Shown: positions 3,323-59,144 of the stretch, piece by piece | Position numbering within the stretch: position 1 is the stretch's first letter | Layout: each line of letters starts with the position of its first letter | NCBI GenBank assembly: GCA_943350765.1 | Contig: CALRAJ010000001.1 | Coordinates: 16,873 to 80,872, forward strand | DNA: 64,000 nucleotides | From: Candidatus Tayloriibacteriota bacterium | GTDB taxonomy: Bacteria; Patescibacteriota; Minisyncoccia; Phycocordibacterales; PALSA-1337 | Direction of reading: 5' to 3' | Notes under the pieces: generated by a model | What the model saw: only the letters and a program-made list of their open reading frames with translations | Told to the model about the DNA's origin: nothing | Databases searched by the model: none | Program-made: the position numbers and the translations under genes

Positions 3323-5140
3323 ATGTCCAAAAAAACAACAAAAGAACAATTTGGCTCTGTTTTAGAACTTTTACGCAATAGTAAGCGTCTCTTGAGGCTG
3401 GTATGGAAAGAGCAAAGAAAAATGATACTGATCATTGTTCTATTATCCCTAGGTATTTCTCTAATGCCTTTTTTGAAAAGCGGAGTACTCGCTCTTTTGG
3501 TAAATAATCTAACCAATATAAATACTGTGGGTACTGGAGCTATTACTTGGCTCTCAGTGCTTGCTGTGATGATGATTTTGGTACCAGAGTTGCTATATGG
3601 TCTAAAGAGTTATGTTGATCGTTGGTTCAGTATTGATTTACAAGAAAGTTTTGAAATCTTCTTTATTTCTAAAAAATCGACAATGGATATTGCGACCATA
3701 GAGGATCCAAAGTTTAATGACATATTGAATACTTTACAGGAGAGAGGTGTGTGGCCAATGGTAAATATGGTAGAGGACATGTTTATGAATCTTCCAAACA
3801 TTCTGGGGGTCATCATTGCTTCTATTATATTGTACACATTTAGTCCTTGGCTTTTTATAATCATTACAATTGCAGTGTTACCTAGAGTATTTGTTGAAGC
3901 GATATACGGTGATGGTGTATACGGCATATATCACGCTGAGGCATCGGTGCGAAGGCGTTTCTGGGCTTTCAGAGATTATTTTATGGATAAAAGAGATTTG
4001 ACAGAAATGAAGTTGTTTCAAAGTACTGGTTATTTTATCAAGATAATTGCTGATATTTTTCATTCGTTCAATACAAAACAAAAAACTGTCGAAAGAAAAA
4101 GAATTTTTTGGCATATGGTCGCACTTTTGGTAACGGGTGGAGCGATAGGTGGGGGTGTCATACTGGTGATTCGTAGTGTGCTCTCTGGTGAGACAGAAGT
4201 GGGGACAATGATTTTTGTAATTTCAGCTATTATTGAGCTAGAGTGGGCATTATCAGGATTTTTGATGAATTTGGCTAAACAATATAAAAACAGTTTGTTT
4301 GTATCTGATTTATTTAGGATACTGGATATAAAGTCAAATCTACCAAAGGCAAGTAATCCCTTTAAAATAAATCCAACTCAAACACCAAGAATTGTTTTTG
4401 ATGATGTTTCTTTTTCTTATCCTGGGACAAAACGAGAGGTGCTTTCTCATCTTTCTTTTACTATAGAGTCTGGAGAAAAGCTGGCACTGGTGGGTGTAAA
4501 TGGTGCTGGCAAGACTACTTTGGTAAAGCTACTCTGCCGAGTGTATGACCCTACTATTGGAAGGATATTGATAGATGGAAGGGATTTACGAGATCTGGAT
4601 ATACATAGCTGGCTTCATACACTCGGAGTACTTTTTCAAGATTACACTTCCTATCAAATGAAAGCTTCAGAGTCGATTGCATTAGGTAGAACCAGTGAGC
4701 CGTTTGACATGGATCGGGTAAAATGGGCAGCACAGGGAAGTGAGGCATCGGAGTTTATAGATGAATGGGAAAATGGATATGAACAGATGTTGGGTAAACA
4801 GTTTGAGGGTGGTATTGATCCATCAAAGGGTCAGCTTCAAAAGCTCGCTCTGGCTCGAGTGTTGTATCGTAATCCTGCTGTGCTTATTCTCGATGAGCCG
4901 ACGGCCTCCGTGGATGCCGAGTCCGAAGCAAAGATTTTTGCTAGGCTAGAGGCTTTACCAAAAGACAAGACAGTGATTCTTATTTCCCATCGCTTTTCGA
5001 CAGTGCGTACAGCAGACAAGATACTAGTTTTGAAAGACGGTATGGTGCATGAGCTGGGGTCGCATACTGAGCTGATCAAAAAAGCTGGGACCTATGCTGA
5101 AATATTTAAATTGCAAGCAAAGGGGTACAATACCGAGTAG
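3323..5140 (+). CDS. ABC transporter, fused permease/ATP-binding protein (exporter type)
   Basis: An N-terminal 6-TM domain is followed by Walker A (GVNGAGKTTL), an ABC signature-like motif (SKGQLQKLALA) and Walker B (LILDEPTASVD). Confidence 0.85.
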   Translation: MSKKTTKEQFGSVLELLRNSKRLLRLVWKEQRKMILIIVLLSLGISLMPFLKSGVLALLVNNLTNINTVGTGAITWLSVLAVMMILVPELLYGLKSYVDRWFSIDLQESFEIFFISKKSTMDIATIEDPKFNDILNTLQERGVWPMVNMVEDMFMNLPNILGVIIASIILYTFSPWLFIIITIAVLPRVFVEAIYGDGVYGIYHAEASVRRRFWAFRDYFMDKRDLTEMKLFQSTGYFIKIIADIFHSFNTKQKTVERKRIFWHMVALLVTGGAIGGGVILVIRSVLSGETEVGTMIFVISAIIELEWALSGFLMNLAKQYKNSLFVSDLFRILDIKSNLPKASNPFKINPTQTPRIVFDDVSFSYPGTKREVLSHLSFTIESGEKLALVGVNGAGKTTLVKLLCRVYDPTIGRILIDGRDLRDLDIHSWLHTLGVLFQDYTSYQMKASESIALGRTSEPFDMDRVKWAAQGSEASEFIDEWENGYEQMLGKQFEGGIDPSKGQLQKLALARVLYRNPAVLILDEPTASVDAESEAKIFARLEALPKDKTVILISHRFSTVRTADKILVLKDGMVHELGSHTELIKKAGTYAEIFKLQAKGYNTE

Positions 5141-5171
5141 TCAAAAGTCGAAAGTACGGAGTTGAAAGTGG

Positions 5172-5209
5172 AGAAATCCCCGAATTTTCAGTAGAAAATT
5201 CGGGGATTT
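5172..5209. repeat. hairpin module of the CCCCGAAAAT family (AAATCCCCGAATTTTC-AGTAG-AAAATTCGGGGATTT)
   Basis: A perfect inverted repeat is read from the sequence. Related copies lie at 31932-31976 and 54664-54693, with a variant at 9664-9710. Confidence 0.5.
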
Positions 5210-5228
5210 ATGGCAAAAGTAGGTAAAA

Positions 5229-5290
5229 ATGAGATTGGCTCTGCAGAGCCAATCTCATCGGCTAAACTCCGTGCTTAGCCGATGAGATTT
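5229..5290. repeat. composite hairpin module TGGCTCTGCAGAGCCA + GGCTAAAC-N-GCTTAGCC
   Basis: Two adjacent perfect palindromes. The same two-part module recurs at 9598-9657, 19093-19150, 45441-45497, 50921-50962 and 54702-54755. Confidence 0.55.
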
Positions 5291-5356
5291 ATAGGTAGAT
5301 AAGGTTAAATAACTAGTGCATCTACGCTATAGCGTAGATGCACTAGTTTAGGTTAC

Positions 5357-5497
5357 TCCAAATTACAAAATACCTTTCTTAGCATATCTTTTTGAAAGCA
5401 CGAGTATTTCTTTGGTAAAAAATCTCTCAAGTCTCAGCTACCCGCTTCCGAAGTCTTTCAAAAAGATACGCCTGCGACGGTATTTGGTAATTTGGTG
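5357..5497. repeat. MITE-like palindromic element, short variant in reverse orientation with a central deletion
   Basis: The termini are CCAAATTACAAAATACC...GGTATTTGGTAATTTGG, and the core CACGAGTATTTCTTTGGTAAAAAATCTCTCAAGTCTCAGCTAC is shared with the other copies. Confidence 0.6.
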
Positions 5498-5525
5498 TAG
5501 GTCGGTATTTTCTTTTGTGGATATA

Positions 5526-5735
5526 TGCTATACTGTTTTTATAAGCCCCTAACGCTCTGACAACGCGTCGTTTCTAGAAGGAAACAGGCTTTTTAAACAA
5601 AACTACAGAGGCTTTATAATAAGCGAATTGAGGTGGCACCACGACATGACCAACACTAGATGTGTTAGGCAAATATCGTCCTCATAAAATTATCCATCGG
5701 GTAGTTTTGTGAGGGCGATTTTAATTTTATCAAAA
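5526..5735 (+). promoter_or_regulatory. probable T-box riboswitch leader for aspS, with an extended -10 (TGCTATACT), a GAC specifier, a T-box core and an SD-sequestering hairpin
   Basis: The -10 box TGCTATACT lies at 5526-5534. A GAC triplet sits at about 5559-5561 in a loop context (CTCTGACAACG). The sequence AATTGAGGTGGCACCACGAC at 5626-5645 matches the T-box consensus AANNNGGGUGGNACCGCG and carries a UGGC bulge, which fits the G73 discriminator of tRNA-Asp. The downstream hairpin CCTCATAAAA...TTTTGTGAGG overlaps a GAGGG Shine-Dalgarno-like sequence. Confidence 0.55.
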
Positions 5736-7067
5736 ATGAAAAGAATATATATCAAAGAATTAGAAAATAATATTGGGCAAGAAGTATTGATTTCTGGCTG
5801 GGTGGATGTGCGTCGAGATCAGGGTAAAATGATTTTTTTTGAGTTTCGAGATGTGAGCGGAAAAATACAGGGAGTGATTTTACCAAATGCAAAAGAGGCA
5901 CATGTGGTGGGGAGTACCCTTCGTCCAGAGTGGGTGGTTTCTGTATTGGGTAAGGTAAACGCACGCCCTGAAAAAAATATTCAAAAAGACAAGCTTAATG
6001 GTGCTATCGAGCTTGAGATTTTGAGTATTGAGGTATTATCAGAGGCAAAGGAGGTACCCTTTGAACTTAATACCGAGGTGAACCTTGATACACATCTCGA
6101 TTACCTTCCTTTTACATTGAGAAATGCTCGTACTCGAGACATTTTTAAAATGCAGGCATCAATACTTAATGCATATCGAAACTCGCTAGCCTCACAAGGC
6201 TTTACTGAGTTTATTGCCCCGGCACTTGTGGGCGGTGATGCTGAAGGGGGGGCGGCAGCATTTAAAGTCGAATATTTTTATGATAAGACAGCTTTTCTTG
6301 CGACAAGTCCACAGCTTTATAAGCAAATAATGGTGGGCTCATTTGAACGAGTGTTTACTATCGCGAAAGTATTTAGAGCTGAAAAAAGTGCTACTACTCG
6401 TCATATATCCGAAATCACTCAGATGGATTTTGAAATGGGTTTTATTGAGGATGAGACTGCACCAATGCAGGTACTCGAAGCCGTTGTTCGTGACACGGTA
6501 GAAGCTGTCACAAAAAAGCATTCAGATATTTTTGCGAGATTTAATACTACCCCCCCTGAAATCCCTGCTAAAATACCAGTATTTACACTCAAGGATGCTC
6601 ATGCACTGATTGCAAAAGAATTCAATCGCACTATTGAAGATGTGTACGATATGGCTCCGGAGGATGAGAGACAAATTTGTGAGTATGCAAAAAAGAATCT
6701 GAAATCCGATTTCGTCTTTATAACCAAGTTTCCAACCAAGAAGCGAGCATTTTACACCTACGAGGAACCAACCGAAGCCCCGTTTTCCCGAGGTTTTGAC
6801 CTCCTTTTTCGAGGACTTGAAATTAATAGTGGTGCACAGCGTATTAATAACTACGAGTCACTCGTGGCTCGGATGAAAGACCGTGGACTTGATCCAGAAA
6901 AGTTCTCATTCTACCTTCAGGCTTTTAAATACGGCATGCCTCCTCACGGTGGTTCTTCGACTGGACTCGAACGATTTACTGCACGCATGCTCGAGATTAC
7001 AAATGTGAAAGAAGCAACCGCATTTCCGCGTGATTTAAATCGTATCGACACACTTTTGTCTCAGTAG
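5736..7067 (+). CDS. aspS: aspartyl-tRNA synthetase (archaeal-type size; possibly non-discriminating Asp/Asn)
   Basis: An OB-fold N-terminus is followed by class II motifs (FRAE, GLERF, PPHGG). It is about 443 aa from the ATG at 5736; the ORF track opens at a GTG at 5709. Confidence 0.85.
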   Translation: MKRIYIKELENNIGQEVLISGWVDVRRDQGKMIFFEFRDVSGKIQGVILPNAKEAHVVGSTLRPEWVVSVLGKVNARPEKNIQKDKLNGAIELEILSIEVLSEAKEVPFELNTEVNLDTHLDYLPFTLRNARTRDIFKMQASILNAYRNSLASQGFTEFIAPALVGGDAEGGAAAFKVEYFYDKTAFLATSPQLYKQIMVGSFERVFTIAKVFRAEKSATTRHISEITQMDFEMGFIEDETAPMQVLEAVVRDTVEAVTKKHSDIFARFNTTPPEIPAKIPVFTLKDAHALIAKEFNRTIEDVYDMAPEDERQICEYAKKNLKSDFVFITKFPTKKRAFYTYEEPTEAPFSRGFDLLFRGLEINSGAQRINNYESLVARMKDRGLDPEKFSFYLQAFKYGMPPHGGSSTGLERFTARMLEITNVKEATAFPRDLNRIDTLLSQ

Positions 7068-15333: not shown

Positions 15334-15543
15334 CCACCAAATTACCAAATACCTTTCTAGGCATATCTTTTTGAAGCCTATCGGTTAGGGATAGGCATCT
15401 GTAGACGAAGCCCTTGTATTTTCTTGCTAGAAAATCTCTCAAGTCTCAGCTACCGTCTGGCGCCGTCTACAGGGACACATCATCTAAACGATGTGAAAGT
15501 CTTTCAAAAAGATACGCCTGCGACGGTATTTCGTAATTTGGGG
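15334..15543. repeat. MITE-like palindromic element, full length, reverse orientation
   Basis: The termini are CCACCAAATTACC...GGTATTTCGTAATTTGGGG. It contains a CTGTAGACG...CGTCTACAG inner palindrome and the conserved core. Confidence 0.7.
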
Positions 15544-20771: not shown

Positions 20772-21012
20772 CCCCAAATTACGAAATGCGTTGAAGGCGT
20801 ATCTTTTAAATGGACTTTCACATCAGTTAGATGATGTGTTCCTGTAGACGGCGCAAGGTGGGTAACCGAGACTTGAGAGATTTTCTAGCAAGAAAATACT
20901 CGTGTCCCGTCTACAGATGGTCTATTAGTTAGGAATAGACATCTGTGGACGATCTATCACTAACCGATAGACCTTTAAAAGATATGTCGAGAAAGTGTTT
21001 TGTAATTTGGGG
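20772..21012. repeat. MITE-like palindromic element, full length, + orientation
   Basis: The termini CCCCAAATTACGAAATGCG...TGTAATTTGGGG form inverted repeats. It contains a CTGTAGACGG...CCGTCTACAG inner palindrome and the conserved core GTAACCGAGACTTGAGAGATTTTCTAGCAAGAAAATACTCGTG. Confidence 0.75.
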
Positions 21013-30725: not shown

Positions 30726-30965
30726 TTGCATAATTTAATATATAATCAAACTATGAAAAATATCTCATCAAGTGACTTATTTGCAAGGCCGTCATTTATA
30801 GAGGGGATTGCGCGTATCGTTGATTTGGGCGGAAATCTTCAGGAATATAATGTATCTGAGACCGAAGCTGAAGCAGATGAAAATGCAATAGGAAATGATT
30901 GGCGGATCGTCGGTCAGGATTTGAGTAATTCTTTTAAGAGATATGAACGCGGTTCCACAAAATAA
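30726..30965 (+). CDS. small hypothetical protein, 70-79 aa, overlapping the start of the next gene (possible operon partner)
   Basis: The ORF overlaps the next gene by 23 nt with a frame shift. No family was recognised. Confidence 0.3.
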   Translation: MHNLIYNQTMKNISSSDLFARPSFIEGIARIVDLGGNLQEYNVSETEAEADENAIGNDWRIVGQDLSNSFKRYERGSTK

Positions 30966-46186: not shown

Positions 46187-46328
46187 ATATTTTATGTATT
46201 AAAATTAAATTATTATACTATTAAGCAAAGTACCGACCATTCTTAATACTAAATTATATACCTCAATATCATAAAAATATATACCGAATGTGGATAACTT
46301 AAATGAGTATCTGCTATAATGTGGTTTA

Positions 46329-46567
46329 CTCCAAATTACAAAATGCGTTGAAGGCGTATCTTTTAAATGGACTTTCACATCAGTTAGATGATGTGTTCCT
46401 GTAGACGGCGCAAGGTGGGTAACCGAGACTTGAGAGATTTTCTAGCAAGAAAATACTCGTGCCCCGTCTACAGGTGGTCTATTAGTTAGGAATAGACATC
46501 TGTGGACGATCTATCCCTAACCGATAGACCTTTAAAAGATATGCTGAGAAAGCAATTTGTAATTTGG
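46329..46567. repeat. MITE-like palindromic element, full length, + orientation, lying in the zwf 5' leader region
   Basis: The termini are CTCCAAATTACAAAATGCG...CAATTTGTAATTTGGGG. It carries the inner palindrome and the conserved core, and is about 96% identical to the copy at 20772-21012. Confidence 0.75.
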
Positions 46568-57676: not shown

Positions 57677-57904
57677 TTTTGCTAAACTAAGTATCTTTGC
57701 TACCCTTATGTCACGAGGCTTCGAATCCTGCTGGGCAGGAATTTCTCGACCTACAGTCGCAGTACAGGTTGTCGATATTTTGTTTCGAAAACTCACAAAA
57801 TATCTGGCAACCTTTTCGAATCCTGACGAAAGCCGTCTCCACGGCTTTCTCTCGCGGAGCCGCAAAAATATAAAGTTCCCAAAAGGGGCAGTTATTTTTA
57901 TCGG

Positions 57905-57977
<73 letters not shown>

Positions 57978-58938: not shown

Positions 58939-59144
58939 CCCCAAATTACTAAATGCGTTGAAGGCGTATCTTTTAAATGGACTTTCACATCAGTAGATGA
59001 TGTGTTCCTGTAGACGGCGCCAGACGGGAGCCGAGACTTGAGAGATTTTCTAGCAAGAAAATACTCGTGCCCCGTCTACAGGTGTCTATCCCTAACCGAT
59101 AGACCTTTAAAAGATATGCCGAGAAAGCATTTGGTAATTTGGGG
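58939..59144. repeat. MITE-like palindromic element, full length, + orientation
   Basis: The termini are CCCCAAATTACTAAATGCG...CATTTGGTAATTTGGGG. It carries the inner palindrome and the conserved core. Confidence 0.75.

Follow-up and report, generated by a model that had tools for sequence, protein, structure and literature searches.

A probable T-box riboswitch with an ultrashort Stem I and a predicted intrinsic terminator upstream of aspS in a patescibacterial genome

The leader of aspS in a 64,000-nucleotide (nt) stretch of DNA from a Candidatus Tayloriibacteriota bacterium (contig CALRAJ010000001.1; the whole stretch is called the window here) is probably a T-box riboswitch, which would respond to tRNA and control aspS by transcription attenuation. 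We put the probability of this reading, which is based on sequence and on folding models, at about 0.72. T-boxes are tRNA-sensing riboswitches that have been described mainly from Firmicutes and Actinobacteria. The gene lies at 5736-7067 on the forward strand, as do all leader features given below, and encodes a 443-amino-acid (aa) non-discriminating aspartyl-tRNA synthetase (AspRS; aspartate--tRNA(Asn) ligase), which would be the regulated product. A T-box ahead of this gene had been proposed in a first-pass annotation of the window. In this study, the proposal was upheld by a specific sub-threshold match to the Rfam T-box model RF00230, by two mutually exclusive folds, by nine homologous leaders in related loci, and by compensated base pairs. 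The reading has three parts. We are confident that the leader descended from a T-box and is organised as one, its expression platform is likely to be a terminator rather than a Shine-Dalgarno (SD) sequestrator, and the window leader is probably still tRNA-responsive. The overall figure follows from these three parts, mainly from the last, which is the weakest.

The core of the leader was placed by alignment to RF00230 and by folding. The antiterminator, which holds the discriminator core, spans 5630-5683. It consists of helix A1 (GAGG 5630-5633 with CCUC 5680-5683), the T-box bulge UGGCACC (5634-5640), helix A2 (ACGA 5641-5644 with UCGU 5676-5679), and a 31-nt insert on top of A2 (5645-5675) with a hairpin of its own at 5650-5669. 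The bulge, 7 nt long and of the UGGNACC type, sits between A1 and A2 and was invariant in all ten leaders, namely that of the window and those of the nine relatives. Stem III was aligned to the Rfam model at 5611-5624 (GCUU-UAUAAU-AAGC). It is flanked by the purines ACAGAG on its 5' side and by GAAUU on its 3' side (5605-5629 with the flanks), in agreement with the reported motif RRRxG-Stem III-AA (PMC7583486). The 20-mer AATTGAGGTGGCACCACGAC at 5626-5645, which had been likened to the T-box core by eye, aligned with the T-box core of RF00230, and GGTGGNACCRCG occurs a single time in the 64 kb. A permissive local scan of 5140-5800 with RF00230 gave a match at 5521-5686 with 29.7 bits (E = 1e-4). 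The alignment covers Stem III with its flanks, A1, the bulge, and A2; the 90 Stem I positions of the model are reduced to 33 nt, and 29 extra nt are accommodated in the A2 loop. A scan of the whole window at the Rfam gathering threshold returned two tRNAs only and no T-box. A covariance-model search thus recovered the leader in part, as a sub-threshold local match, but not at the gathering score.

A terminator scan placed an intrinsic terminator at 5675-5731. It consists of a hairpin of 20-21 base pairs (bp) at 5675-5719 and the U-run TTTTAATTTTAT. The terminal hairpin had been described in the first-pass annotation; the U-run, which begins immediately 3' of it with TTTTAATTTT, had not been mentioned. 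The 5' arm of the hairpin reuses the 3' strands of A2 and A1 (5676-5683), and the terminator and the antiterminator are therefore mutually exclusive. When 5604-5686 was folded, which leaves out the 3' arm of the terminator, the minimum free energy structure was Stem III together with A1, the bulge, and A2, at -18.1 kcal/mol. With the 3' arm included, the terminator fold reached -43.7 kcal/mol, compared with -26.7 kcal/mol for a forced antiterminator. A hairpin followed by a U-run was present in all ten leaders. Sites of the hairpin-plus-T-run kind were somewhat enriched in the window as a whole (22 vs. 13.9 +/- 3.9).

From these features we infer binding of tRNA, termination, and a physiological response as follows. 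Transcription would start just past the -10 box at 5526-5534, and the very short Stem I would present, in its apical loop, a GAC for pairing with the GUC anticodon of tRNA-Asp. If this tRNA is uncharged, its free 3' end (G73-C-C-A) would pair with the UGGC of the bulge and stabilise the antiterminator of A1 and A2 (5630-5683), and with the antiterminator formed the polymerase would read through into aspS. With charged tRNA, or with none, the stronger hairpin at 5675-5719 would take over the 3' strands of A2 and A1 and, together with the U-run, end the transcript ahead of the aspS ATG.

The length of the leader was examined against the other gene starts of the window. The extended -10 promoter box TGCTATACT at 5526-5534 occurs in six copies in the window against 0.46 expected, and at three other copies an ATG begins 6 nt past it. 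In many window genes an extended -10 box (TGnTAnnnT) ends 6-7 nt ahead of the ATG (for example 15734, 20049, 21769 on the reverse strand, 32030, and 53581), a sequence pattern which implies that leaderless mRNAs would be widespread in the source genome. The aspS ATG (5736) lies 201 nt beyond its -10 box, and the transcript would start near 5541. The long leader and the recurring -10 box that had been reported earlier were thus both recovered, with a leader of about 195-200 nt. Many genes here look leaderless, and the 201-nt gap ahead of aspS is exceptional. A TGnTAnnnT box was also found just upstream of the leader start in relatives. A promoter-like TTTAAA-17-TATAAT inside the leader (5592-5620) was dismissed, as 51 such sites against 48 expected is not above chance. 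Among 62 first-ATG starts of open reading frames (ORFs) in the window, none had an SD-like motif (GGAG, GAGG, or AGGA at -18 to -3). The identity of the gene itself was clear: the product matched NF003483 with 451.8 bits (cut-off 353), its N-terminus aligned with those of relatives, and the best 80 relatives of the protein were all metagenome-assembled Paceibacterota, Nomurabacteria, Kaiserbacteria, or 'Saccharibacteria'.

These data bear on the mechanism that had been proposed in the first-pass annotation, in which the terminal hairpin sequesters a GAGGG taken for an SD element and uncharged tRNA frees it for the ribosome. In TBDB, class I T-boxes are transcriptional and class II T-boxes, with a truncated Stem I, are translational. 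An ultrashort Stem I with an apical specifier and an A2 insert, both present here, have been ascribed mainly to translational T-boxes (PMC7583486), and GAGGG (5711-5715) does lie in the 3' arm of the hairpin. However, GAGGG is 20 nt from the aspS ATG and is the obligatory complement of the A1 3' strand, so it is present in any T-box terminator and was not accepted as an SD-like element. Across the leaders, 16 to about 55 nt separate the hairpin from the start codon; for the supposed SD, the spacer is 20 nt in the window and up to about 55 nt in relatives, and masking of an SD in the manner of class II was not found in them. A U-run follows the hairpin in 10/10 leaders, a different small ORF comes next in the relative L020, and SD-like motifs are missing from all 62 ORF starts in a window where many -10 boxes stand 6-7 nt from the ATG. 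Because of the U-run, the variable spacer, the lack of SD motifs, the different next ORF in L020, and the obligatory nature of GAGGG, the expression platform was read as an intrinsic terminator. The translational reading had to be given up as very unlikely.

How aspS would be initiated after read-through is a separate matter. In the window (5736) and in four relatives (L004, L021, L031, and L212), the start codon lacks an SD and does not stand at a 5' end, and for that reason neither an SD-dependent start nor a leaderless one is an obvious fit. Internal genes of operons in the window have an A/U-rich stretch similar to the one ahead of the aspS ATG. In L031, a TATAAT box 4 nt ahead of the ATG hints at a possible second, leaderless promoter.

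The decoding part of the leader is small. An ultrashort Stem I was found at 5552-5568, in which the helix ACGC/GCGU closes the 9-nt apical loop UCUGACAAC. The GAC triplet followed by A that had been noted earlier in a loop context is indeed in this loop: GAC 5559-5561 is followed by the purine A5562, within CTCTGACAACG, and it specifies aspartate, in agreement with the identity of aspS. Directly after it, at 5562-5564, stands a second codon, AAC (Asn). An ultrashort Stem I whose apical loop holds the specifier is a mark of class II, and the window leader has it. With its 17 nt, the hairpin has no long Stem I and no distal platform (AG bulge plus distal loop). The Stem I architecture that had been anticipated was thus found in part, as an apical-loop GAC hairpin, but the K-turn and the distal AG-bulge platform were absent from the window. 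A second hairpin, GUUUCU-AGAA-GGAAAC at 5570-5585, has a purine-rich loop and occupies the position of Stem II in the relatives, by fold prediction only. The Stem II and IIA/B pseudoknot of class II were not found in the window, which has this simple hairpin only. With low confidence, the models also predict an outer helix (AAGCC 5543-5547 with GGCUU 5587-5591) that would close a three-way junction. We also considered a canonical internal specifier loop (AAC-A 5583-5586, before the GGCUU helix) and rejected it, as there is no AGUA/GAA S-turn and homology favours the apical GAC.

We next describe the homologous leaders. About 90 other aspS loci (L-numbered) were examined as relatives, and nine of them carry the leader (L004, L011, L020, L021, L031, L207, L212, L259, and L260), all from Patescibacteria. 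It stands directly ahead of aspS in eight; in L020, where it was found with a covariance model built from six relatives, a small ORF lies between. All nine have the bulge UGGCACC, A1 as AGGG/CCCU, and A2 as GCGA/UCGC. They also share an overlap of terminator and antiterminator, a U-run after the terminator hairpin, and a short hairpin CCG...CGG with the loop N-NU-RAC-A(A)-C, which reads CNGACA or NNU-RAC-AAC. A K-turn (CC-NNN-GA-N ... N-GA-GG) surrounds the Stem I hairpin in eight of the nine and is absent in L020. Strands of a Stem II S-turn, A(A/G)GAA and GUAGAA, were found in five (L011, L021, L031, L207, and L212), and a IIA/B-like pseudoknot was seen by eye in several relatives. Seven of the nine gave no match to RF00230 at E <= 0.01, and the other two scored 30.7 and 32.3 bits, below threshold; standard annotation thus misses the whole group. 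Of the ten, the window copy has diverged furthest. This derived, minimal form has no Stem I platform, K-turn, or recognisable S-turn and carries the 31-nt A2 insert. L020 has lost the K-turn and kept every other element, and the losses of K-turn or S-turn in the window and in L020 are perhaps independent. The A2 inserts of the window, L020, and L260 have no obvious common sequence.

In L020, the ORF that follows the T-box terminator (L020:2670-2960) encodes 96 aa with a hydrophobic, signal-peptide-like N-terminus (MKKVIIILVILLAIFIIAGQ...), and aspS begins only at 2998. By its position, an unrelated small protein seems to be under T-box control in this locus.

Covariation was examined in a hand-built alignment, in which the helix segments were placed relative to the invariant bulge and loop. 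Five base pairs differ between the window and all nine relatives, and 5/5 have changed on both strands. Two are in Stem I (C-G to G-C and G-C to C-G; CCG/CGG in the relatives), two in A1 (A-U to G-C and G-C to A-U), and one in A2 (G-C to A-U). The helix cells of the alignment were 100% paired, a value reached by 0/500 shuffles. When the partner strands were slid by 1-3 columns, pairing fell to 29-47%. For both changes in A1, the 3' arm of the terminator supplies a third match: AGGGGCGA of the relatives has become GAGGGCGA (5711-5718) in the window.

Several observations weigh against a working T-box in the window. The RF00230 score of 29.7 bits is far below the gathering cut-off of 93. The covariance model R1, built from six relatives, missed the window copy with default filters and, with filters off, scored it at 13.1 bits (local E ~9e-4). 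A single sequence supplies all five compensated changes, and the helix segments were chosen by hand. A tRNA-Asp gene was not found in the window or in the loci of 60 relatives, so its GUC anticodon and G73 come from assumption. No GA motif of a K-turn was found in the window leader, in other registers either: where the pattern has CC-NNN-GA-N ... N-GA-GG, the window has CC-CCU-AA-CGC ... GCG-U-CG-UU. The K-turn has been reported as essential for T-boxes with a short Stem I (PMC7583486). Strands of a Stem II S-turn (GUAGAA and A(A/G)GAA) were likewise not found in the window leader. The foot pair of A2 is A-U in the window and G-C in the relatives, not the G-U wobble that has been described as the main aminoacyl sensor (PMC7583486). 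Finally, the closest aspS relatives examined, except L004, have no leader (77-84% protein identity). These are L001, L002, L078, and L005 (77-83%) and L201, L202, and L205 (84%), and in each of them a -10 box lies about 7 nt ahead of the aspS ATG. Wherever the upstream neighbour was looked at, it was the ABC-transporter gene of the window, as in L078 and the 84% group. Conservation of the leader among aspS relatives, which had been named as a check of the proposal, was therefore seen in nine more distant loci but not in the closest ones. Such a patchy distribution among close lineages indicates that the leader was gained or lost repeatedly.

These observations raise the possibility that the window leader is a decaying relic, that is, a T-box descendant without tRNA binding which acts as a constitutive partial attenuator or is an inert leader being lost. 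The missing K-turn and S-turn, the seven leaderless close relatives, and the 13 bits against the relatives' own model are in line with this idea, and dispersed repeats fill the surrounding intergenic DNA. A relic is, however, hard to reconcile with five substitutions in three helices that are all compensated, two of them three-way with the terminator arm. Nothing has been lost from the 7-nt bulge, the CUGACA loop, or the flanks of Stem III, and an unregulated 21-bp terminator before an essential gene would be costly. L020 also lacks the K-turn, yet it has kept all other elements. Taken together, decay of the leader is improbable, and a T-box that would still read tRNA remains the preferred reading.

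We then considered which tRNA would be bound. The earlier proposal had joined a GAC specifier before aspS to a UGGC bulge that would pair with a tRNA carrying G73, and both points were retained, the pairing as a prediction. UGGC requires G73; the tRNA-Asn of the window has G73, and a tRNA-Asp gene was absent from the loci scanned. We take the host tRNA-Asp to have G73, as is generally the case. On the sequence of specifier and bulge, the cognate tRNA is most likely tRNA-Asp, with G73 assumed. The gene of tRNA-Asn(GUU) lies at 57903-57977 on the reverse strand, and its discriminator G73 precedes CCG, so that only part of the CCA end is encoded. Among the relatives, seven of nine have GAC as the specifier, and the other two, L011 (leader L011:2841-2985) and L020 (leader L020:2508-2660), have AAC (Asn). 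As the enzyme charges both tRNA-Asp and tRNA-Asn, either codon would be sensible. In 5/10 leaders (window, L004, L020, L259, and L260), RAC is directly followed by AAC in a 9-nt loop. Such RAC-AAC loops could mark a change from one sensed amino acid to the other, Asp or Asn, or could serve dual sensing for a non-discriminating AspRS.

For the window, with its GAC-AAC loop, this would mean sensing of tRNA-Asn, or of either of the two tRNAs, in place of tRNA-Asp alone. The charging of both tRNAs by the enzyme, the fit of the window tRNA-Asn G73 to UGGC, the replacement of GAC by AAC in L011 and L020, and the tandem codons in half of the leaders all speak for it. On the other hand, four relatives have GACAC without a second AAC, and the AAC at 5562-5564 abuts the closing base pair in place of a free purine. 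We regard this alternative as unlikely and keep tRNA-Asp as the preferred effector.

The T-box core by itself occurs by chance and is no proof of a T-box. A 13-mer core was found 167 times in unrelated metagenome and viral loci; 14 occurrences had the 8-nt A2+A1 complement downstream, and 153 did not. The 14 metagenome loci with the partner strand look, by sequence, like genuine T-boxes. Viral contigs served as a negative control in two scans (15- and 16-mer), and 0/46 core matches had the complement; no T-box was found there. A chance resemblance, meaning an ordinary intergenic region with a terminator and a T-box-like 13-mer, would be one more of the 153 cases without partner strands. The window leader, in contrast, possesses the 8-nt complement, an overlapping terminator, a cognate codon, and a bulge base that would match the discriminator, and the gene that it directly precedes encodes an aminoacyl-tRNA synthetase. 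The local E values are 1e-4 for the Rfam model and 9e-4 for R1, and the nine homologous leaders effectively refute chance, to which we assign practically no probability.

Other candidates were set aside during these scans. A metagenome scan with GACAN{55,85}GGTGGCACCNCGA gave mostly chance matches in G+C-rich coding DNA and about 14 apparently genuine T-boxes, none recognisably of the aspS-leader class. In L024, a hydrolase gene contains the T-box-like GGTGGAACCGCG, which was attributed to chance, as was a one-mismatch core match at 30948 of the window (reverse strand), which has no partner strands. Further weak matches of R1 (window 40264, window 5139-5262, and L080) fell in coding or unrelated sequence.

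The leader was compared with known T-boxes. It resembles canonical class I T-boxes (RF00230; Bacillus subtilis tyrS and glyQS) in the 7-nt UGGNACC bulge between A1 and A2, in Stem III with its purine flanks, and in a terminator that shares the antiterminator 3' strands and is followed by a U-run. It further resembles them in a specifier plus purine that matches the synthetase and in a bulge N that would match the discriminator base, with G73 of tRNA-Asp assumed. It differs from them in having no long Stem I, distal platform, or internal specifier loop, the codon being apical. The window copy differs also in the lack of a K-turn, the 31-nt A2 insert, the A-U foot of A2, and the score of 29.7 against 93 bits. 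Transcriptional T-boxes have been described as generally needing a long Stem I platform that binds the tRNA elbow for quick capture, and the ultrashort Stem I with an apical-loop specifier as belonging to translational, mainly actinobacterial T-boxes, in which the K-turn and the Stem II S-turn are then essential and A2 inserts are frequent (PMC7583486).

The actinobacterial class II leaders of ileS (Mycobacterium tuberculosis and Nocardia farcinica) share with ours the ultrashort Stem I and the apical specifier about 15 nt from the 5' end. They also share the K-turn of eight relatives and the S-turn strands of five, and A2 inserts occur in both (Sherwood et al. 2015, via PMC7583486 and PMC7778990). 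Unlike these ileS leaders, ours has a hairpin and U-run as the platform in place of an SD sequestrator, in a host without SD motifs. It concerns Asp or Asn and not Ile, and its phylum is Patescibacteria. Neither the K-turn nor the S-turn, both reportedly needed in this class, is present in the window copy. In the Patescibacteria leaders, then, a decoding module of the class II type is joined to a terminator of the class I type.

A Clostridium acetobutylicum T-box for tRNA-dependent amidation and a two-codon T-box are reportedly the subjects of two articles by Saad and colleagues from 2012 and 2013. That leader is said to have a canonical long Stem I in a Firmicute. It would be like ours in governing the Asn-tRNA route through a non-discriminating AspRS, and in perhaps presenting more than one codon. 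The tandem GAC-AAC in a 9-nt apical loop would set ours apart, and dual sensing is conjectural here. A lineage-specific extra stem in the antiterminator/terminator domain is also found in 'stem Sa' of staphylococcal glyS, which differs from our leader in gene, tRNA, and phylum (PMC9177973).

In the literature searched, whose coverage is incomplete so that this is absence of evidence only, we found no report joining T-boxes with the candidate phyla radiation (CPR), Patescibacteria, Parcubacteria, or Saccharibacteria. The T-box family is well known; its occurrence in this phylum, an ultrashort Stem I joined to a terminator, and forms without K-turn and S-turn appear to be undescribed. Our reading would extend the range of T-boxes to the CPR. 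Because the Rfam model misses these leaders, riboswitch censuses of such genomes undercount T-boxes. An ultrashort Stem I with an intrinsic terminator also contradicts the reviewed rule that pairs the ultrashort Stem I with translational control (PMC7583486). If the window and L020 copies are active, they would lower the known minimum of parts with which a T-box can read tRNA, and the patchy distribution of the leader provides a natural comparison series of gain and loss. As a tentative and rather doubtful extension, these leaders may form a minimal Patescibacteria class, in which a hairpin of about 15 nt shows the codon (in half of them as tandem GAC-AAC, matching the two tRNAs of the enzyme) and antiterminates without an elbow platform, in the window and L020 also without K-turn or S-turn. 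The long A2 insert and the long terminator stem might then compensate through extra contacts or through time for tRNA binding.

The region between the stop codon of the ABC-transporter gene (5140) and the T-box promoter, 5141-5525, contains dispersed palindromic repeats and has a fold z-score of -9.4. Perfect palindromes of 15-19 bp were found at 5174-5209, 5229-5258, 5251-5289 (overlapping 5229-5258), and 5311-5348. A repeat element of 150-250 nt with conserved ends CCAAATTACAAAAT ... ATTTGTAATTTGG and nested internal palindromes is present in at least five copies in the 64 kb: 5354-5499 (shortened), near 15335-15531, 20795-21010 (reverse strand), 46326-46567, and 58962-59142. By its arrangement, it could be an element of the MITE or REP type or a structured RNA family.

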